A DNA stretch of 35,937 nucleotides from a virus (Duplodnaviria; Heunggongvirae; Uroviricota; Caudoviricetes), in IMG/VR virus record IMGVR_UViG_2778261229_000003, positions 1-35,937 of that record; one strand, written 5' to 3'. Numbering within the stretch: the first letter of the stretch is position 1; the number at the start of each line of letters is the position of its first letter. Both the position numbers and the translations under genes were made by a program. Below, piece by piece: positions 1 through 8,440 of this stretch. Under the pieces are notes generated by a model that was not told the origin of the DNA, ran no database searches, and saw only the letters and a list, made by a program, of their open reading frames with translations.

Positions 1-201
1 TTACCCATTGGCGCGGCTTAAGAGCTTATTTTTGAATTCACAATGGTCACGATATAACCATCTTGCTCGCCCGTGGATAACTTTGGCTTTTGGCAGGTCG
101 CCGGACTTAATCCGGTCGTAGATGAAGGTTTTACCGAAGCCAGTATCGGCCATGATGAATTTCAAATCAACCAGTGAATCAGGTTGTAGTTCGTGTTGCA
201 T
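1..201 (-). CDS. xis: Excisionase / AlpA-family DNA-binding protein
   Basis: 66-aa ORF with helix-turn-helix pattern FIMADTGFGKTFIYDRIKSGDLP...RWLYRDHCEF typical of AlpA/excisionase family; first gene at the left end of the prophage early region, integrase expected beyond coordinate 1. Confidence 0.6.
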   Translation of the reverse strand: MQHELQPDSLVDLKFIMADTGFGKTFIYDRIKSGDLPKAKVIHGRARWLYRDHCEFKNKLLSRANG

Positions 202-246
202 GAGTGCTATCTCCGAATAGGGAATCGAACCTGCAAATCAGGCAAT

Positions 247-268
247 AAAAAACCGCCATCAGGCGGCT
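247..268 (-). terminator. Rho-independent terminator (minus strand)
   Basis: Minus-strand hairpin GCCGCC-TGAT-GGCGG followed by TTTTTT (plus 246-266 reads aaaaaaccgccatcaggcgg). Confidence 0.5.
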
Positions 269-434
269 TGGTGTTCTTTCAGTTCTTCAATTCGAATATT
301 GGTTACGTCTGCATGTGCTATCTGCGCCCACAGCATCCAGTGGTCATAGCAGTCGTTGATGTTCTCTGCTTCGATAACTCTGTTGAATGGTTCTCCATTC
401 CATTCACCTGTTACTCGGAAGTGCATTTATCATC

Positions 435-464
435 TCCATAAAACAAAACTCGCCGTAGCGAGTT
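435..464 (-). terminator. Rho-independent terminator (minus strand) downstream of the 266-aa gene
   Basis: Minus-strand hairpin AACTCGC-TACG-GCGAGTT followed by TTTGTTTTAT, 20 nt past the stop at 484. Confidence 0.45.
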
Positions 465-483
465 CAGATAAAATAAATCCGCA

Positions 484-1284
484 TTAAGCGGCGTCGGTGA
501 ATTCAAATAAAAAACCGGCTTGCGCCGGCTCTCTCATCTTTCTGTCTACCCATGCTGATATCGATGGCGGGTGCACCTTTTCAATAGCAGCGCGAAGTAC
601 AGCTGTGCGTGCCAGTTTGTCGGTAATCTCAGGAAATCGCTTCTCTGTCTTCGGTACGTTAACAGCAACATTAGTAGAATCCGCACTGGCGAACGGATAC
701 ATACCAAGAACTCTCACGTCGAGCATTCGAAGACCATGAATTTTCACTTTCAAATTACGATTGATATAAAGCTCAGTGAAAACTTCATCCATTCTCTGTT
801 CCCACCATTTAGAGCGTATGTGCCTGTGTGGTCCGCAGCATCCAATCGCCACCCATTCAAATTTGCTAGAAAGGCGTAAAAGACGTTCAATTGATTCGTC
901 GGTATGCCAGACCGGAACCGCTTTTGATTTTAGCCAATCAGGAACCAACTCAATCTGCTCGTCGTTTTCTGCCTCTGTCCCTTCGATAACGTCAGGTATA
1001 AGAAACCATTCAATTCTGCTGAACCACTTCCCAACAAAGTCGTAGAATTTTGCTCGTCTCTTACTCCAGTCTACCGGAGTGCCTTTCTTTAATGCTTTCA
1101 TCCAGTCGCTAAAAGCACCGTTATCAAGGCGTATATCACAAGGGAACATGGCAATCTTTTTCATCTGCTCTGGTCTGGCAAATGAAACAAAAGCCCCACC
1201 ATCACGGTAAAGGGCTTTAATCAGCATATCTGTAGGGGCATGCTCATCCCCCCATATTGGGCTGCCGTGAAAGTGGATGGTCAT
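484..1284 (-). CDS. Hypothetical 266-aa ea-region protein; possible TGT-fold (DpdA-like) enzyme
   Basis: Long ORF, last gene of the leftward operon before xis; motif order LDNGAF ... HTDES ... AIGCCG ... SADST resembles the catalytic loops of tRNA-guanine transglycosylase family (from memory, not searched). Confidence 0.5.
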   Translation of the reverse strand: MTIHFHGSPIWGDEHAPTDMLIKALYRDGGAFVSFARPEQMKKIAMFPCDIRLDNGAFSDWMKALKKGTPVDWSKRRAKFYDFVGKWFSRIEWFLIPDVIEGTEAENDEQIELVPDWLKSKAVPVWHTDESIERLLRLSSKFEWVAIGCCGPHRHIRSKWWEQRMDEVFTELYINRNLKVKIHGLRMLDVRVLGMYPFASADSTNVAVNVPKTEKRFPEITDKLARTAVLRAAIEKVHPPSISAWVDRKMREPAQAGFLFEFTDAA

Positions 1285-1326
1285 ATTATCCCCATATAAA
1301 AGAAATCCCCGCGAATGCGAGGATTG

Positions 1327-1611
1327 TTATTCATTGCCGATATTCACCTTTATCGCGAATACCTTTACCGGTTTATCTCCGAAGTGCGGATGTGTGATTG
1401 TCTTGATTTCATATCCGTCATACGGAACATCAATTCTACGGCTGGAATCGTCGCGCTTCGGATATCCCTTTGTGATAATCAGGCGGTCATACTCCCGGAA
1501 CATAATTCGCTTATTCCAGTAGTCATTACACAGGCGATACTCTTCCGTTTTCTCTCCGCGAATGATGGCATCGAAGTATTCACCTTTAACGGCTAGTTGC
1601 AGGTTAGCCAC
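1327..1611 (-). CDS. ASCH/PUA-like small protein (DUF3850-like)
   Basis: 94-aa ORF; N-terminal pattern LAVKGEYFDAIIRGEKTEEYR resembles ASCH-type domains; start overlaps stop of upstream gene. Confidence 0.45.
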   Translation of the reverse strand: MANLQLAVKGEYFDAIIRGEKTEEYRLCNDYWNKRIMFREYDRLIITKGYPKRDDSSRRIDVPYDGYEIKTITHPHFGDKPVKVFAIKVNIGNE

Positions 1612-2167
1612 GGTTAACCTCCTGCGGCGGTTCCGGTAGCCGCATCCAGTCGGTTACATTGCGACTCTGTGTTTCGAAAAATTCATCACCATTGCGGACA
1701 ATATCGAAAAACTCTCCGTCTCGATATTGCGCATAAAGAACGAATGCGCCATCACATAAAATAATTACGTGCTGACCATCATCTGGCATTCGCTCACTAC
1801 AGCTTATCCAACCATCCGGAGTTACCGGAGTTGGTCCATCGAATTCGGGCATGTCAGGACCTTTTCTGATAGCTTTAGCCAGCTCCAGCGGGTCATCGTA
1901 AAGCCAGTCGCCAGTTTGTGGGTGATTTGCTTCTGCAAGCTGCGCAGCCCATTCAAGACCATCTTTTTGACCTTGGAGATAATCAAGCGGCAACTCTTCA
2001 TGATTACTTGCAGGTTCGGCACTATCAGCTTCGCGCCGCTTCTGTAGCTCTGCTGCCATCGCTCTCACGACTTCAACTGGTGCCCTTGCAGCAAACTCTA
2101 TGTTGGTGATCAGCTCATTAAGATATTGCTCGCTGGGATACTGTTTCTTATTGGTAATAGTGATCAT
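1604..2167 (-). CDS. DUF551-domain phage protein
   Basis: 187-aa ORF; C-terminal signature W..C.ERMP...VIILCDG...DWMRLPEPP typical of DUF551; ATGA overlap with upstream gene. Confidence 0.55.
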   Translation of the reverse strand: MITITNKKQYPSEQYLNELITNIEFAARAPVEVVRAMAAELQKRREADSAEPASNHEELPLDYLQGQKDGLEWAAQLAEANHPQTGDWLYDDPLELAKAIRKGPDMPEFDGPTPVTPDGWISCSERMPDDGQHVIILCDGAFVLYAQYRDGEFFDIVRNGDEFFETQSRNVTDWMRLPEPPQEVNRG

Positions 2168-2679
2168 GCCGCGTTTCCTTCTTTCTTATTAACAATTACA
2201 CCGTCATATATTTCATTAAGGTGCCCTCTCAACTCCATGCGCCTTAATGCAGATAACATGTAATCGCATTCAACCTGCTTATTTCCAGTAAATGGCTTAT
2301 CGTCAGGATTACCCCAACAGCAATTACCCTTGGGCCACCCATGTACTTTCCGTACTCTTCCGTTAACAACGTGAAGTAATCCCCAGCCAGGTGGTAAATC
2401 CTCAATTGAAATAATTCCCGGCTCACTAATAAAGAATCGCCAGTCGCCCATTCCAAGAGACGGATTTTTACGGAAACGCTTTTTTCTATCTGCCAACAAG
2501 TCAGCACGAGAACACTTCGCCTCTATCAAGCATGATGCTGAACTTCTGAATCCCATAGCATCTGGCTGTTCTCCGGTGCTGGTTACAGCTATAAAGCGGT
2601 CATGAAAGCAAACCTTGAACCCGTTGCGCTTAAGGAACTTGTACGCAATCTGACAGAGTTCGCGGTGTGTTAACGCCAT
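2164..2679 (-). CDS. PD-(D/E)XK-type nuclease-like protein
   Basis: Start refined to ATG 2679 (MALTHRELCQ) preceded by AAGGAG; motif GEQPDAMGF ... CLIEAKCSRADL matches D...ExK nuclease core. Confidence 0.5.
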   Translation of the reverse strand: MALTHRELCQIAYKFLKRNGFKVCFHDRFIAVTSTGEQPDAMGFRSSASCLIEAKCSRADLLADRKKRFRKNPSLGMGDWRFFISEPGIISIEDLPPGWGLLHVVNGRVRKVHGWPKGNCCWGNPDDKPFTGNKQVECDYMLSALRRMELRGHLNEIYDGVIVNKKEGNAA

Positions 2680-2680
2680 C

Positions 2681-2875
2681 TCACTCTCCTTTAGTGCGCA
2701 GATAACAGTGGTTTTTCCAGCGGTTTTGCGCCGCGCTGGGCTTTTTGCAAAAACCACAATCCATCATCCCGTAATGTTTCATTAACCCCACCCGTCGGTT
2801 GCTGAGTCTCACCCACTGCCAGACGCCAGGAGCGTTTCTGCGAACTAACAGAATCTTTGCTTTACGGTTTTTCAT
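2681..2875 (-). CDS. Small hypothetical protein (64 aa)
   Basis: ORF with AGGAG 9 nt upstream of ATG; ATGA overlap with upstream orf58 and stop 1 nt before nuclease start (translational coupling). Confidence 0.3.
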   Translation of the reverse strand: MKNRKAKILLVRRNAPGVWQWVRLSNRRVGLMKHYGMMDCGFCKKPSAAQNRWKNHCYLRTKGE

Positions 2876-3048
2876 CGTTTTGCTCTCCTGCGTTTCTTTG
2901 CTGCTCGTCGTGCCGATGCAATACCGGTATGGCGGCGCTTTGGTGCCGGGATGATGTTGTCAGCCATCAGGACATGTGGCTTTGCAATTAGCGCAGAAGC
3001 CCAAAAACGAGTCGGGTACGGTAACAAGCCGATACATGCCACACGCAT
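2872..3048 (-). CDS. Small basic hypothetical protein (58 aa)
   Basis: Hand-translated ORF MRVACIGLLPYPTRFW...RRAAKKRRRAKR; ATG overlaps the TAA of the Ea22-like gene (TAATG); below the 60-aa track cutoff. Confidence 0.3.
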   Translation of the reverse strand: MRVACIGLLPYPTRFWASALIAKPHVLMADNIIPAPKRRHTGIASARRAAKKRRRAKR

Positions 3049-3743
3049 TACTCACCTCCTTTGATGCGAATGCCAGCGGCGCGGGAATCATTCCATCGCT
3101 TTACTTCTTCACGAATTACGTCAATGCATTCTTTCGAATCCATTAGGTAATCTTCATCAAAAAGACGTTCCTGTTCGTTTTCTATCGCAACAATGATTGC
3201 TTCAACTAACTTTTGTGCCTGAGAACCACTTTCTAACTCTGCAATGCGCTTCTCTGCGGCTTCCAGCTTCTCGCGCATATCGTCAACGTACTCGACCAGA
3301 GATCCGCCAGCAGGAATTTCGCACTCCTCGACCAGTTGGAAGTAGATATCAGCTGCGGCCCGTGTGTTGCTATGCCTAGCGTCGCCCATCTCACCTTCAC
3401 GAAGAGCATCGCGTTCGGCGGTAAGATTGGCTATTTTGCTGTCTTTGCCTTCCAGCTCAACGCGCAGCCTCCCTACCGTTAGCGCAATATCCTCGTTCTC
3501 CTGGTCGCGGCGTTTGATGTATTGCAGGTTTCTTTCCCGTTCATCCAGTAGTGCCAAAGCAATCTTGGGATTAAAGGCAGCAATAAATTCAGCGTTGTTT
3601 TTCAGAACGTGTTGCGCAATGGCCTGACTACTTAGCCGGACTTCATAACCACGTGCGCCACGGTGTGGTTTATATGAGTCCCAGTCACCCCACGTTGCTT
3701 TCTCTGCCGCCTCACGCAGTGCCTGATAGTCAATCTTGCTCAC
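3048..3743 (-). CDS. Ead/Ea22-like family protein
   Basis: 231-aa ORF with N-terminus [21 protein letters not shown] typical of lambdoid Ead/Ea22-like proteins; acidic coiled-coil rich. Confidence 0.5.
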   Translation of the reverse strand: MSKIDYQALREAAEKATWGDWDSYKPHRGARGYEVRLSSQAIAQHVLKNNAEFIAAFNPKIALALLDERERNLQYIKRRDQENEDIALTVGRLRVELEGKDSKIANLTAERDALREGEMGDARHSNTRAAADIYFQLVEECEIPAGGSLVEYVDDMREKLEAAEKRIAELESGSQAQKLVEAIIVAIENEQERLFDEDYLMDSKECIDVIREEVKRWNDSRAAGIRIKGGE

Positions 3744-4381
3744 TGGTTGCCTCCTTTGCGAAGCTGTTCAGCAATACTTACGCATATCTCTGCGCCTCTA
3801 ATCAGCCCCGGAACGTTCTTGTTTGGCCCAACTTCACCATCAACAAAATCAATCATCGCGTTACGAGCCATATCTACGCCCTGCGCCCGGACTTCAGCCA
3901 GGCATTTGCGAAACTCGGAAACGTACTGTTCGACGCTCATTCCCCAGCTAAGTGGACATTCATTGAATGTTTCGCCTTCGTGCTCTTCATCAGGTAGCTC
4001 TTTGGTAAAGAACTCACGCTCAATGGCGTGGAGTGTGTCAGCAAAACGACGTAAGTTACTCAAACCTGTCGTAATGGAGAATTCAAGAGCATCACATCCG
4101 ACGACCATCTGCTGGTAAACTGCTGTTTTGAAGGCCTTCAGTCTCGCATTCTCCGCAGCCAGCGCTGAAAACTTCTCGTGTGCCAACTTAACAGCCGCAT
4201 CAGCCTGCTTAATTGACTCAATCGCTCTCTGGTGGTCTTCGTACAGAGCCGAAATCTTGGCCTCCGCTTCAGCAAATTTACGCACCAGATATTCAGCGTT
4301 TGTTTCGTTAACCTTTAAATCTCGTGGGATGCATTTACCTTTCAGAAAACCATCCATCTCAATTAGTGACATTTGTTTCAT
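3740..4381 (-). CDS. Hypothetical coiled-coil protein (ea region)
   Basis: Track ORF 3740-4399; likely start ATG 4381 (MKQMSL) with GGAG 9 nt upstream; ATGA overlap with downstream Ea22-like gene. Confidence 0.45.
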
Positions 4382-4542
4382 TTCTTCCCACTCCGCCACA
4401 TCGCATTCAGATATTTGTTTTGATTTACTGACGGAAAAGAATTTCTCTTAAGCAATTCCTCTCTCGATGGCATTGGCTTTACGCGTTGGCGAATAATCAT
4501 TTCTGCCGGAAGAATGCCGTGATTGTATGCAAGTCCTCTCAT
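4378..4542 (-). CDS. Small hypothetical protein (54 aa)
   Basis: Hand-translated ORF bridging two genes, ATG overlaps stop of upstream gene (ATGA); weak evidence only. Confidence 0.2.
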
Positions 4543-4829
4543 GATTTACTCTCCACGAACTGGTCAATAGCCATGCTAAGTGACACACCTAAAGTCTCGA
4601 TATGCTGCTGAATATCCTGTAGCGTCTGCGCCTGAGATAACAGGATTTCACGGTTGCATAACTCTTTGACCAGATGCTCAAACTTGCTGTAATAACCGAT
4701 ACGGCTTAGTGTTTCTTTCCCTGCATTCTCGCCTTCTTTGATAATTCCTCTTTCACTAAGAATCAGGTCGTGTTTGGTTCCGGTAATAACGTATTTTCCG
4801 AGGTCGATGTTTAGCTTCATTGTTTTCAT
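4539..4829 (-). CDS. Hypothetical protein (96 aa)
   Basis: Track ORF 4539-4982; start refined to ATG 4829 ([10 protein letters not shown]) with GAGGA 7 nt upstream. Confidence 0.45.
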
Positions 4830-4839
4830 TGTTAATTCC

Positions 4840-5136
4840 TCAGTCATTACTGATAGCGCCATAGCGTGAGCGGTAATTACGCAGGCGCGGGTCGATATAT
4901 TCAGGGAAGTGGGTATATGTGGCTTTGCGGAATGGTCGGATTGATGTCTGGTAAATTCGCTCGCGTTCTTCTTTCTCTGCAAGCCATATACAATGGCGAA
5001 ATTCCTTTTCCTCTTTCGTTTCCTGCGGTAGCGACATTATCCGATCGTAGTTTTTTCTGAATTTATCCAGCACCTCCGATACGGAATTGCCGGAACAGCG
5101 GCGCGGGTCATCCGCACCATACAGAGGCGCTGGCAT
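4840..5136 (-). CDS. Hypothetical protein (98 aa)
   Basis: ORF with AGGAG RBS 7 nt upstream of ATG 5136; no recognisable motif. Confidence 0.45.
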   Translation of the reverse strand: MPAPLYGADDPRRCSGNSVSEVLDKFRKNYDRIMSLPQETKEEKEFRHCIWLAEKEERERIYQTSIRPFRKATYTHFPEYIDPRLRNYRSRYGAISND

Positions 5137-5152
5137 GGTTTTCTCCTGTTGA

Positions 5153-5701
5153 TTATTTAGCTAACTTTTTCCAGATCGCTGAAACGTATTTGGCTTGGTG
5201 AATGGCATCATCAAGAGCGTTGTGGCGAGTTCCTTTGAATGGCATATCTCGCTTAGGGTCGAATCCTATTACCTTTCCAAGCTCGACGATTGTTCTTACG
5301 TCGCGGTCATTCCACCACTGCCATGGAACTGGCTGCCCTGTCAGCGAATAACTGTTTCGGAGAATAACGCAGTCAAATGATGCTCCATTCCCCCAAACCT
5401 GAACGAATTTGTGGTTAGCGTTCTTTATGATGAATTCAGATAACCATGAAAGAGCCGTTGAAAGCTCCTGAATGTTGCTGGTTAGCGATTTTCTGGCTTC
5501 TTCACTCTGTTCCAGCCACCATAAAATCGTTGAAGCGTCAGGACGCGCCCGATATCGCATTGATGACTCAAGCGAGATATTTACCGAGAACTCTTCTCCT
5601 GTTTCTCCGGTATTCGGGTCAAAGAATACCGCCCCAATAGAAATAACTGGCGCGTATGGCCCGTTGCCCATTGTTTCAAGGTCAACCATCAAGTGATTCA
5701 T
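5153..5701 (-). CDS. DnaQ-like (DEDDh) 3'-5' exonuclease
   Basis: 182-aa ORF with exonuclease motifs MVDLETMG (Exo I) and HNALDDAIHQAKY (Exo III); AAGGA RBS; sits with SSB and annealase. Confidence 0.7.
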   Translation of the reverse strand: MNHLMVDLETMGNGPYAPVISIGAVFFDPNTGETGEEFSVNISLESSMRYRARPDASTILWWLEQSEEARKSLTSNIQELSTALSWLSEFIIKNANHKFVQVWGNGASFDCVILRNSYSLTGQPVPWQWWNDRDVRTIVELGKVIGFDPKRDMPFKGTRHNALDDAIHQAKYVSAIWKKLAK

Positions 5702-5709
5702 GTAAGTCC

Positions 5710-6216
5710 TTAAATTGCGTGAATAGCGTGACGAGGGAAGGGGAGAGTTACTGGTGCAAAGGGTATATCGTCGTCAAAATCCATAGGTGGTTCGTTGTGT
5801 TGTGCTGGTGATGATTGCTGCTGTGGCTTCTGTGATTGCCTGCTGGCTGCTTGTTGTTTGCTGTCGCCAATGCCGCCAAGCATTTGCATCACGCCATTAA
5901 TTCCGACATGAACCTCGGTTGTGTAACGGTCTTGTCCTGACTGGTCTTTCCACTTTCTGGTTCTCAGCATTCCCTCGAAATAAATCTGATCACCTTTTTT
6001 CACATACTGCCCCACGACCTCAGCCAGTTTCCCGGATACAGCAACACGATGCCATTCAGTCAATTCCTTTTGCTCGCCAGTATTTTTATCTCGCCATTGT
6101 TCTGACGTGGCTATTGTCAGGTTAGCGAACGCTGTTCCTGATGGTGAGTATCGAACTTCCGGGTCTTGTCCTACCCGACCAAGGATAATCACCTTATTTA
6201 CGCCTCTGCTTGCCAT
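5710..6216 (-). CDS. ssb: Single-stranded DNA-binding protein with C-terminal extension
   Basis: OB-fold N-terminus [18 protein letters not shown]..., Gln/Pro-rich linker and acidic tip DFDDDIPF, but ORF continues 15 codons ([15 protein letters not shown]) past the canonical terminal Phe. Confidence 0.85.
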
Positions 6217-6924
6217 TTATGCCGCCTGTTTTAGTTCGTTAACTCTGATGTTCATTACCTGAACGCATTTAGCCTGCGCCTCCTCGTTGCCAGCCATTAA
6301 TTGCCAGTCACGCTGATAACGCTCGATGAGTTTTTTCTTGTCAGTTTCTGTTGATGCATAATCGCTGAAGTCTTTCAGGATTTGTTCGCAGTCAACCGAT
6401 GGAGATTTCTGGTTGGTATTTTCTGGTGATGGTTTGTTATCTGATGCTGGGATTGCCCATCCCGGCAGCGTTGGAGGGAGCCAGTAAAACCCTGTTCCAT
6501 CCTTCAGTTTTGCCCTGTGCCACCCCTGTTTTTTATCGAGAGATGTTTGTGCGAAACCTTCCTCAAGGTTATACAGATACCGACCGATTCCCCACTGAAC
6601 GGCAGCGCGCTTCATTGCACCGGAACGACCACCTTTGACGGCTTCTACCTGCGTGTTTTCAGCAGCATCCCATTTGGTTACCCATTCGGAATCAATCTTT
6701 ATTGATATGCCGCATTCAACGCCGCCGTTGTTGGGAATATCGCGGTATTCATTGCGCCATCCTGCTTTGCCGCAAACATCGTCCAGGCGTTTCATGATTG
6801 CCCGGTTCGTTACATAAGCCAGCACCATAGCCCACACTTTGCCATCGCGTGTTTTACCGCTTTGCTGTATTCGCCATTCGATATCTTCAGGGCTGAATGG
6901 CTCATCGAATTTATTCAAATCCAT
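6217..6924 (-). CDS. Rad52/22-family single-strand annealing protein
   Basis: 235-aa ORF with Rad52-type motifs including AMKRAAVQWGIGRYLY; GAGGTG RBS; adjacent to ssb and exonuclease. Confidence 0.7.
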   Translation of the reverse strand: MDLNKFDEPFSPEDIEWRIQQSGKTRDGKVWAMVLAYVTNRAIMKRLDDVCGKAGWRNEYRDIPNNGGVECGISIKIDSEWVTKWDAAENTQVEAVKGGRSGAMKRAAVQWGIGRYLYNLEEGFAQTSLDKKQGWHRAKLKDGTGFYWLPPTLPGWAIPASDNKPSPENTNQKSPSVDCEQILKDFSDYASTETDKKKLIERYQRDWQLMAGNEEAQAKCVQVMNIRVNELKQAA

Positions 6925-7023
6925 AATTCACCTCAGAATGGACATGGCCCAAGGAAATAACGCTGATTTAATACTTCGACTCGGGACAAATTAAGGCATA
7001 CCCGCATTCCTTCGCGGTCGCCA

Positions 7024-7182
7024 TTATGGCGATACCAGAGAGCTTTCTGCGTGTACATGCGTCTCTGTAACTTGCTCTCCTTCACTGTGGTTGCAAGTGA
7101 CATGAATATCTCCTTCGTTACCGATTAATTCTTTCATCTGACGAATGAATTCTTCGTCTGACCAGTTATCTGTAAAACTCAT
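7024..7182 (-). CDS. Small hypothetical protein (52 aa)
   Basis: Hand-translated ORF MSFTDNWSDEEFIRQMKELIGNEG...; ATG overlaps TGA of kil-like ORF; below track cutoff. Confidence 0.35.
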   Translation of the reverse strand: MSFTDNWSDEEFIRQMKELIGNEGDIHVTCNHSEGEQVTETHVHAESSLVSP

Positions 7183-7331
7183 TTCCTGCGATACCACGGA
7201 AGGTTGATAGCTGATTTCATCGCTTTATTTGCTTCAATCCACATTTTTGAATCACCAATAAATCTGGCTATTACTGCTTTGTTCTGTGCTGCACGAAGCA
7301 TCTGGTGATTGATGGCTATTTCATTGCGCAT
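7179..7331 (-). CDS. kil: Kil-like host-killing/cell-division inhibitor
   Basis: 50-aa ORF MRNEIAINHQMLRAAQNKAVIARFIGDSKMW...; FIGD.KM core recalls lambda Kil; located directly downstream of cIII as in lambda. Confidence 0.5.
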   Translation of the reverse strand: MRNEIAINHQMLRAAQNKAVIARFIGDSKMWIEANKAMKSAINLPWYRRK

Positions 7332-7447
7332 AATAAGACCTCAACTCTTTTCCATCCGTCACGTAATTTACGGGTGATTCGTTCAAGTAAAGATTCATTT
7401 AGTTGGAAGGCACCCATGCGAGCGCCTCCCGCGATTGCGTAAATCAT
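7316..7447 (-). CDS. cIII: CIII-like protease inhibitor
   Basis: 43-aa ORF MIYAIAGGARMGAFQLNESLLERITRKLRDGWKR...; the segment SLLERITRKLRDGWKR matches lambda CIII from memory; AAGGA RBS. Confidence 0.7.
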   Translation of the reverse strand: MIYAIAGGARMGAFQLNESLLERITRKLRDGWKRVEVLLCAMK

Positions 7448-7471
7448 GGGTGGTTCCTTATGTTGGTTTTA

Positions 7472-8440
7472 TTAGTAGGTTATTTTTGTTGCGAATACTT
7501 CGCCTTTTACGATGGCTGTTATGATATTTTTAGCAACATCTTCTGATGCGCCAACCTTGATAAGGTCAGCAAGTATTTTGTTATTTACTTCTTTCCGGTG
7601 AGCTTTATCCTTTGCTCTACGCTCTTCTTCGTCCTTGATTCTTTTTTCTTCTGCTATTCTGGCTTGCTCTTTTGCTTCAGCCTCGCGCCGGATTCGTTCT
7701 GCCTCCTCCTGTGCTTTACGGCGTTCTGCTTCAATTGCCGCATGCTTTTCTCTTTCAGTTCGTTCTGCTGCCTCTTTTGCTTCGCGCTGTGCTCGTTGCT
7801 CGGCTTCAATGCGTTCACGCTCTGCACGTTCCGCTGCGGCCTTAGCTTCTGCTTCTCGCCTTGCTGCTGCTTCAATTTCGGCTTTTGCCTTTGCTTCGGC
7901 TTCTGCTCTGGCTTTCTCTTCAGCTTCTCTTTTTAAGCGTTCTTCATGCTCTCGCTTTTCCTGCTCCGCTTTGAGTCTTTCCTCTTCTCTTTGGCGGTCA
8001 AATTCGCGATCCATCAAAATCGCTATTTCATGGTCAGACTCAATTTGCTTTGCGAGAGCTTCAGCTGCTGCCTTAGCTTCTTCTTCGGCTTTAATCCGCG
8101 CCTGTTCTTCCTCATAATCAGTAAGAGGCTGGCGCGCCTTGGCTTTCAGTTCATCAAGGCGATCGCGCACTGTCTTGCGGTTGGCATCAATTAGCTTTGG
8201 AATTTCCTTAAGTTCAGCAACAAGGTCTTTGCCAAGACCATCGAGATATGTTTTCGTCTGCGCAACTTTATACGCCAGAGAAGCGATCTCCTTTCTGCCC
8301 TTTGCCGTTGTGATATCAGGCACAAAGGACATAACTTCACGTTCAACCTTTTGAAGGATTTCTTCAATCTGGTCGGCAGACTGAAATACAGTCATTGCAT
8401 TTGCTTTTTCAATAACAACTAAATCTGTTACTTCACTCAT
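7472..8440 (-). CDS. ER/K-rich charged-repeat protein (predicted single alpha-helix / coiled coil), unknown function
   Basis: Track ORF 7472-8494; start refined to ATG 8440 (MSEVTDLV) with GGAGG RBS; central ~170 aa of A/E/K/R repeats (EAEAKAKAEIEAAARREAEAK...). Confidence 0.6.
   Translation of the reverse strand: MSEVTDLVVIEKANAMTVFQSADQIEEILQKVEREVMSFVPDITTAKGRKEIASLAYKVAQTKTYLDGLGKDLVAELKEIPKLIDANRKTVRDRLDELKAKARQPLTDYEEEQARIKAEEEAKAAAEALAKQIESDHEIAILMDREFDRQREEERLKAEQEKREHEERLKREAEEKARAEAEAKAKAEIEAAARREAEAKAAAERAERERIEAEQRAQREAKEAAERTEREKHAAIEAERRKAQEEAERIRREAEAKEQARIAEEKRIKDEEERRAKDKAHRKEVNNKILADLIKVGASEDVAKNIITAIVKGEVFATKITY

Follow-up and report, generated by a model that had tools for sequence, protein, structure and literature searches.

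A mosaic early accessory operon of a P22-like phage and its predicted MmcB-like PD-(D/E)XK nuclease

Five packed genes in a leftward early operon

Within the 35,937 nucleotides (nt) of IMG/VR virus record IMGVR_UViG_2778261229_000003 (Caudoviricetes; the window, i.e. the whole stretch analyzed), five consecutive open reading frames (ORFs) at positions 1327–3048 lie on the minus strand, in a leftward early accessory operon. In the order of transcription, they encode two small basic proteins (orf58 and orf64), a predicted nuclease of 171 amino acids (aa), a 187-aa protein ending in a DUF551 domain, and a 94-aa ASCH/PUA-like protein. These ORFs are separate, independently reassorting gene modules joined head-to-tail by short conserved linkers, and together they are likely a segment of an ordinary mosaic P22-like early accessory operon rather than a dedicated defence or anti-defence cassette. 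The 171-aa protein is, by modeled fold and motif, a PD-(D/E)XK nuclease, best described as a member of a phage-borne sister family of the MmcB/DUF1052 DNA-repair nucleases.

The first 25 kb of the window resemble CUS-3, Kapi1, HF4s and Sf6 (about 96–97% identity over 34–56% of the query in megablast), and by this likeness the window is assigned to a P22-like (Lederbergvirus-type; CUS-3/Sf6/Kapi1-type) coliphage or prophage. Along the direction of transcription, genes for SSB and a DnaQ-like exonuclease are followed by several small ORFs, a 219-aa ORF, an Ead/Ea22-like gene and then the block of five, after which come a 42-nt gap, the gene of a 266-aa DpdA-like protein and xis. Regions of this type are named 'ea' in P22 and 'exo-xis' in lambda and Shiga toxin (Stx) phages. 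The block occupies the same position as these regions (Ea22, orf60a, orf63, orf61, EaA), between the recombination genes and xis/int, and shares with them the leftward early operon, the Ead/Ea22-like gene immediately upstream and a mosaic organization of domains and genes (PMC10834534). It differs in that the orf60a/63/61 set is not found at this place, and in that 933W and Min27 lack the nuclease.

All five leftward ORFs proposed in a sequence-only reading of this DNA are present, with overlapping or abutting stops and starts. Each start is preceded by a Shine-Dalgarno (SD) sequence inside the upstream gene, as in a translationally coupled operon. The Ea22-like gene meets orf58 at TAATG (1-nt overlap, gap −1), orf58 meets orf64 at ATGA (gap −4), orf64 meets the nuclease gene at TGAgATG (gap +1), and the nuclease gene meets the DUF551 gene at ATGA (gap −4). 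The four junctions listed in that reading are therefore real, one of them—TAATG—being the junction to the upstream Ea22-like gene, while the DUF551/ASCH junction, GTGGCTAA, had been omitted (8-nt overlap, gap −8; GTG start of the ASCH-like gene). For the nuclease, the mechanically called ORF reaches a GTG at 2757, and the ATG was taken as the start because of the N-termini of homologs and an AAGGAG 7 nt upstream. Nine consecutive genes, the first being orf147 (a 147-aa ORF) and the last the ASCH-like gene, follow one another with gaps of −8 to +1, such that the same head-to-tail packing extends through at least four more genes upstream of the block. Genes on the plus strand overlap likewise (e.g. 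12772/12775, 16446/16449, 18691/18694 and 29094, 29939/29942). Tight packing is generic to the operon segment and not special to these five ORFs.

orf58 encodes a very basic protein (isoelectric point (pI) 12.0) with an Arg/Lys-rich C-terminal tail, which belongs to phrog_13831 (E = 1e-41); an SD sequence, AAAGGAGG, lies 6 nt before its ATG. Its frame is intact in 15 DNA versions carrying in-frame indels, among them a 60-aa form of 58% identity and one shortened to 51 aa by an in-frame deletion, and the ratio of nonsynonymous to synonymous polymorphism (pN/pS) ranges from 0.14 to 1.25. orf64 is likewise basic (pI 11.1; phrog_1380, E = 5e-38), with conserved ends (MKNRKAK... and ...SAAQNRWKNH..LRTKGE) around a variable middle. 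Its homologs, down to 49% identity, occur in 142 phage records including the L0068 region of 933W (tblastn), where orf64 occurs without the nuclease, and its pN/pS lies at 0.16–0.62. A zinc-ribbon (CxxC...HC) considered for orf64 was dismissed, as the cysteines are absent from homologs of 50–57% identity. A second, 58-aa paralog of orf64 (MKNRKAKRLFLQ...KPTASQNRRKKGYAVR; 37–39% identity) is found in many ea regions (L011, L018, L024, L036, L049 and L052), which suggests that tiny basic proteins of this kind, conserved at the ends and variable in between, form a family.

Short ORFs of this kind might be chance products of conserved linker DNA, in which case orf58, possibly also orf64, would be spacer and the block would hold only three genes. 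Indeed, pN/pS of orf58 rises to 1.0–1.25 in some comparisons, the orf58-homologous stretch is left unannotated in 933W and Min27, and in two E. coli records PGAP flags its counterpart as carrying a frameshift. Small size, extreme basicity and stretches of low complexity are common to both products, neither of which has a match in Pfam or NCBIfam. Against this stand the well-placed SD sequences and starts of both ORFs, their membership in PHROG families, the preservation of the orf58 frame through in-frame indels and in the 58%-identical version, the ~50%-identical orf64 homologs with their conserved ends and the orf64 paralog in many loci, as well as pN/pS values below 1 in most comparisons. 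We consider the spacer explanation unlikely: orf58 is probably coding, and orf64 is taken to be a gene.

The DUF551 domain recognized earlier is confirmed by Pfam, which matches residues 119–182 of the 187-aa protein over model positions 1–68 of 68, well above the gathering threshold (E = 4.5e-19; 69.5 bits versus a cutoff of 22). Residues 1–110 form a variable, acidic N-terminal part, and the protein matches phrog_60 and phrog_6847. DUF551 is a portable domain, present in some Ea22 variants of Stx phages and in YfdS of prophage CPS-53 (PMC10834534, PMC4776307). For the 94-aa protein, the suggested PUA/ASCH-like domain was recovered by fold search, on which the assignment rests: the protein adopts a predicted PUA-like β-barrel whose nearest solved structures are ASCH domains. 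The Pfam ASCH model (PF04266) gave 18.6 bits, under its cutoff of 21.2, with residues 6–28 alone aligning; the NCBIfam scan returned no match, and comparing the ASCH alignment with E. coli YqfB at profile level gave nothing significant. Compared with known ASCH proteins (the E. coli ac4C amidohydrolase YqfB, Zymomonas ASCH, human TRIP4/ASC-1, PH0355 and E. faecalis 3IUW), the protein carries an N-terminal F-D-x-I-x-x-G-x-K-T-x-E-x-R that fits the start of the Pfam model; it is shorter than ASCH domain proteins, and catalytic residues could not be assigned. Single-sequence PDB searches with the nuclease, ASCH and DUF551 proteins gave chance-level matches only, and NCBIfam returned no match for any of the five proteins. 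Like orf58 and orf64, the DUF551 and ASCH/PUA-like genes are accessory genes unrelated to one another, and nothing ties the products of these four mechanistically to the nuclease.

Table 1 Features of the five-gene block and its immediate surroundings (coordinates of the window).
Feature	Coordinates	Strand	Basis
orf58 (58 aa)	2872..3048	-	phrog_13831
orf64 (64 aa)	2681..2875	-	phrog_1380
171-aa predicted MmcB-like PD-(D/E)XK nuclease	2164..2679	-	phrog_631 family
187-aa acidic protein, C-terminal DUF551	1604..2167	-	Pfam PF04448
94-aa ASCH/PUA-like domain protein, GTG start	1327..1611	-	fold search
Ead/Ea22-like gene, 231 aa, upstream context	3048..3743	-	Pfam PF13935, E 3.6e-27
Upstream module linker AAAGGAGAGTGAgATG: SD, stop of upstream gene, nuclease start	2677..2692	-	
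Downstream module linker GCGGCATGAtCACTATTACC: nuclease stop overlapping next start, and first codons of next gene	2153..2172	-	
Terminator-like hairpin in the 42-nt gap between the ASCH-like and DpdA-like genes	1304..1325	-	consensus scan

Module linkers and independent reassortment

Parts of the region 1200–3300 of the window are matched by 469 phage records and 3564 E. coli records, yet 80% or more of it is never found in one place, be it in a phage record or in a complete E. coli genome. Co-occurrence of the five genes was scored by searching 80 viral contigs, each with a nuclease that shares at least 98% identity with that of the window, with the window proteins (some counts refer to 71 of them). 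An orf64 homolog adjoins the nuclease gene in 38 of the 80 loci, and orf58 lies upstream of it in 35. A DUF551 domain of some kind is encoded within 700 nt of the nuclease in 32 of 71 loci, a count that rises to 48 of 71 at a distance of 2.5 kb; the DUF551 protein of the window itself (at least 85% identity) accompanies it in just 3 of 71, and the N-terminal ~54 codons of the 187-aa protein in 8 of 71. The ASCH-like gene is found within 3 kb in 17 of 71 loci, and all five genes occur together in a single locus of the 80 (L049). Hence, the five genes do not keep a conserved company or order across genomes. Conversely, 933W and Min27 possess orf58-, orf64-, DUF551- and ASCH-type genes without the nuclease, and in P7 and a Yersinia phage the nuclease is present with different neighbors, those in P7 being an Ead-like gene upstream and the 432-aa Upf89.5 downstream. 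In two relatives (P0009, P0092), the nuclease is fused in-frame to Ea22 N-termini. A metagenomic relative of 428 aa (P0134) carries a TniB-like AAA+ ATPase domain N-terminal to its nuclease domain (Pfam TniB, E = 3.2e-6); like the Ea22 fusions, it reflects the same modular behavior.

The joints between these modules became apparent when the flanks of the nuclease gene were compared in the 80 related loci (L006–L085). The upstream linker, AAAGGAGAGTGAnATG, is near-invariant, being present in all 80 loci with rare single-base variants, and the nuclease start is preceded by AAAGGAGAGTGA(T/G)ATG in 80 of 80 loci (again with rare single-base variants). The gene in front of this linker is of the orf64 type in 38 loci, and in the remaining ones an Ea22-type 3′ end takes its place. 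The downstream linker consists of GCGGCATGA plus about 11 nt; the nuclease stop lies in GCGGCATGAyCACTATTACC or close variants in most of the 80 loci, and at least six different downstream genes follow, sharing their first codons (M-I/T-T-I-T). Similarly, the conserved 3′ end of the Ea22-like gene provides the SD/stop linker to orf58, and in other loci this same 3′ end is followed straight away by orf64 or the nuclease gene. As the linkers remain constant whatever the neighbor, the coupling architecture belongs to the module junction and not to a specific pairing of proteins. This makes the linkers around the nuclease candidate recombination joints for module exchange. They would allow translation to re-initiate along a polycistronic early transcript and, at the same time, could serve as short homologies at which phages swap modules; the overlaps would then reflect genome compaction and modular exchange, and not a need for fixed protein ratios.

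These findings bear on the proposal, made in the sequence-only reading, that the five genes form one anti-defence or prophage defence cassette—a nuclease effector with nucleic-acid-binding partners, their ratios set by translational coupling. In its favor, the stop/start overlaps are real, a nuclease and a PUA-like fold are held in one operon, and PUA-like folds often read modified bases. Moreover, accessory functions are known from ea-type regions, which are non-essential, and a DUF551 protein is often near the nuclease (see above). The exo-xis genes of lambda and Stx phages have been found to influence the lysis-lysogeny decision (PMC10834534). However, the junction type from which stoichiometric partnership had been deduced is common to the whole operon segment, the overlap chain continuing into unrelated upstream genes. 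The genes reassort independently, the complete set being met in one locus of 80, and neither the DUF551 protein nor the ASCH-like protein is a regular companion of the nuclease. Among 45 loci chosen via the DpdA-like gene, ASCH is adjacent in 8, and 1 contains the nuclease. The linkers flanking the nuclease are conserved regardless of the adjacent gene; homologs of the nuclease in virulent phages reside in replication modules without DUF551 or ASCH partners. Finally, none of the five proteins matched a PADLOC defence model at E ≤ 0.1. We therefore hold a joint cassette to be very improbable, whereas any single gene of the five may or may not have an anti-defence role.

Some observations weigh against reading the block as mere mosaicism. 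In 48 of 71 loci a DUF551-type protein is encoded downstream of the nuclease, at a distance of up to 2.5 kb, and orf64 adjoins the nuclease in about half, which is compatible with cooperation in pairs; DUF551 genes are common throughout such regions, though, and the 48/71 figure stands without a baseline frequency. In addition, the 80 loci were picked by near-identity of the nuclease and are thus mostly E. coli prophages. On balance, we favor ordinary ea-region mosaicism, and the 'cassette' reading of the block should not be carried forward. The stop/SD/start linkers illustrate clearly how lambdoid accessory genes can be swapped as units with their translation signals retained.

Several features lie next to the block. 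The tightly packed chain ends at the putative terminator hairpin of Table 1, which has a stem of nine pairs and, behind it, a T-rich tail. Two more terminator-like hairpins are present on the transcribed strand, at 509–534 (in the final 50 nt of the DpdA-like ORF) and at 250–269 (after a 55-aa ORF, 259–426). In positions 1–7500 of the window a single promoter-like site was found (7176–7149), with none inside the five-ORF block, and a search for known RNA families in positions 1–8000 found none. Upstream of the Ea22-like gene, a 54-aa ORF (4378–4542, minus strand) has ATGA overlaps with both neighbors; because of this linkage on either side, the real start of the 219-aa ORF (3740–4381, minus strand) is suggested to be its seventh codon, the ATG at 4381, rather than the GTG at 4399.

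The 266-aa protein encoded beyond the 42-nt gap (484–1284, minus strand) matches phrog_887, 'queuine tRNA-ribosyltransferase' (E = 1e-102), and has no match in Pfam or NCBIfam. It looks like a singleton DpdA-like DNA transglycosylase adjoining xis, with no preQ0 synthesis genes nearby, and resembles the 'singleton DpdA' group of gamma-proteobacterial phages (PMC6884629). By this resemblance, the phage may put 7-deazaguanine into its own DNA using host preQ0. A conserved partnership of the nuclease or the ASCH-like protein with this gene—modifying the phage's own DNA and cutting unmodified DNA—was considered and rejected: of 71 nuclease loci, 1 has the DpdA-like gene at a distance of up to 5 kb, and in the 45 IMG/VR loci that carry it, its upstream neighbors vary, with ASCH adjacent in 8 and the nuclease present in 1.

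A phage-borne relative of MmcB

The 171-aa protein matched no Pfam, NCBIfam or PADLOC model (in the case of Pfam, including PF06319 at E ≤ 0.1). It belongs to PHROG 631 and is weakly linked to phrog_5429, 'DNA repair protein'. Public records already contain the sequence: P7 Upf89.0 (99% identity) and genes of Stx phages, Shigella phage Ss-VASD and Yersinia phage vB_YpM_39 are 98–99% identical to it, all without functional annotation. A profile search of 1.84 billion representatives retrieved 3266 clusters at E ≤ 0.001. Across 46 representatives of 35–56% identity, D40, D60, G78, R81 and E137 are invariant, while E37, P39, E53, K55, S57, D64, K67 and R70 are conserved in at least 90%. E37, D40, E53 and K55 are all invariant in 26 close homologs, and a comparison of seven phage lineages (28–54% identity) left H5, E37, P39, D40, E53, K55, R58, D60, D64, K67, R70, R81 and E137 unchanged. 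The pN/pS of the nuclease gene is 0.03–0.10, indicating strong purifying selection.

An AlphaFold2 model of the protein (pLDDT 79, pTM 0.75) shows the canonical α-β-β-β-α-β core, with D40 at the start of strand 2 and E53/K55 at the end of strand 3. Both hallmarks of the PD-(D/E)XK superfamily are thereby present, i.e. a restriction-endonuclease-like core fold and a conserved D...(D/E)-x-K on strands β2 and β3. Predicted fold and motif together identify the 171-aa protein as a PD-(D/E)XK nuclease with E37, D40, E53 and K55 as its putative catalytic residues, from which a metal-dependent phosphodiesterase activity would be expected. The nuclease core and the residues picked out in the sequence-only reading are upheld by the model, and the homologs retain the motif, whose loss would have spoken against it.

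Several lines of evidence point to MmcB as the closest known relative. The family profile matches 3dnx by sequence (E = 4.5e-4), with 'PD..G' and 'IECKxSRxDFxxDxK' aligned, and SPO1766 (3DNX) is also the nearest solved structure, its motifs again in register. 3DNX represents the DUF1052/MmcB-like family, which is listed among the PD-(D/E)XK nucleases (PMC3424549). Weak hits to PF06319 (MmcB-like) were obtained for 6 of the 46 relatives (best E = 2.9e-4), several structural neighbors in BFVD are named MmcB-like, and the depositors of Vibrio phage H8 themselves attached the remark 'spo1766 structure' to its homolog. The 171-aa protein and the MmcB/DUF1052 family (PF06319; SPO1766; Caulobacter crescentus MmcB) have in common D-x-x-G ... 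(I/V)-E-C/A-K-x-S-R-x-D-F-x-x-D-x-K as well as a similar size and a single domain. They differ in that sequence identity to 3dnx is about 23%, that the PF06319 gathering threshold is not reached by the 171-aa protein, and that the phage family is borne by phages and prophages of gamma-proteobacteria and Vibrio, whereas DUF1052 is mostly chromosomal and alpha-proteobacterial (PMC3424549). Caulobacter MmcB is, furthermore, SOS-regulated, while the 171-aa gene sits in a phage early operon and shows no sign of being under SOS control. A small, single-domain PD-(D/E)XK architecture is also typical of archaeal Hjc-type Holliday junction resolvases, and weak hits to the Hjc Pfam model were seen for 8 of the 46 relatives. 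This likeness is far weaker than that to 3dnx, and compared with Hjc, the phrog_631 family possesses an additional C-terminal helix region that is conserved (E137, R146).

A programmed frameshift between orf64 and the nuclease gene, an idea prompted by phrog_9263 and a GTG-extended 197-aa ORF, was also considered and rejected, as the frame change is seen at one locus (L061) and as other N-terminally extended nuclease entries in the databases have different upstream sequences. In L061 (about 4812–5513), a change of frame unites orf64 and the nuclease in one ORF of 234 aa, which explains the PHROG 9263 profile (orf64 first, nuclease after) and looks like a mutation or sequencing error rather than a programmed event.

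Genomic context and a possible role in phage replication

More distant members of the family appear in a different setting. In Salmonella phage S118 and Vibrio phage 207E48.1 (both Ackermannviridae) and in Vibrio phage vB_VpS_C2 (Mardecavirus), a homolog lies directly upstream of a DNA primase gene recognized by PHROGs (phrog_47), not by Pfam. The homolog overlaps or abuts the primase gene (L131, 3480–5161; L132, 3363–5107; L135, 1697–3466), and that of vB_VpS_C2 also comes after two helicases and DNA polymerase I. These primase-adjacent homologs are phrog_631 members with the same invariant residues. The family is thus found upstream of primase in virulent Ackermannviridae and Mardecavirus and as a portable early gene in temperate enterobacterial phages. 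In Caulobacter, protection against mitomycin C and cisplatin is provided by MmcB, a PD-(D/E)XK endonuclease under SOS regulation (PMC9578287). Because of the primase adjacency in virulent phages together with the repair function of MmcB, we tentatively put forward, as the leading candidate role, that the nuclease cuts a DNA structure or lesion in phage replication, recombination or repair.

The distribution of the gene may alternatively suggest a selfish or offensive element, either a free-standing homing-type endonuclease or a host-takeover nuclease that degrades host or competitor DNA. Its copies share at least 98% identity across very different backbones (P22-like phages, Stx phages, P1/P7 plasmid-prophages and a Yersinia phage) and have different flanks, and the gene is bounded by short conserved sequences. 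Yet, with neighbors this variable there is no constant target gene for homing, and the same conserved linkers flank other modules, as in the Ea22 3′ end joined directly to orf64. In virulent phage families, orthologs stand stably beside primase, the closest family (MmcB) consists of repair enzymes, and the single-domain 171-aa protein has no evident specificity or DNA-recognition domain. We accordingly give a homing or host-takeover function hardly any credence and retain the replication, recombination or repair role as the preferred suggestion.

The latter, too, has evidence running counter to it. Adjacency to primase was seen in two independent phage lineages only; Vibrio phages VP-RY-9, LV6 and H8 have the homolog amid genes of unknown function. 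The surroundings of P0172 and P0114, two further distant or intermediate homologs, are arrays of tiny unannotated genes that say nothing either way. Likewise, the placement beside MmcB draws on fold similarity and one profile match (E = 4.5e-4), with no Pfam threshold reached.

At the level of the family, phrog_631 comprises over 3000 clusters at 50% identity; it is not covered by any Pfam or NCBIfam model and is labeled 'hypothetical' in P7, Stx phages, Ackermannviridae and Vibrio phages alike. It is conceivable, if rather doubtful, that the entire family is a sister of MmcB that works with the phage replisome. If true, phages would possess a previously unrecognized nuclease for processing replication forks, lesions or branched DNA; a nuclease aimed at host or competitor DNA would be the less likely alternative. 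A widespread, strongly conserved family of phage nucleases is now placed beside MmcB/DUF1052, with its putative catalytic residues named and a replication-module context, which makes its proposed function directly testable.

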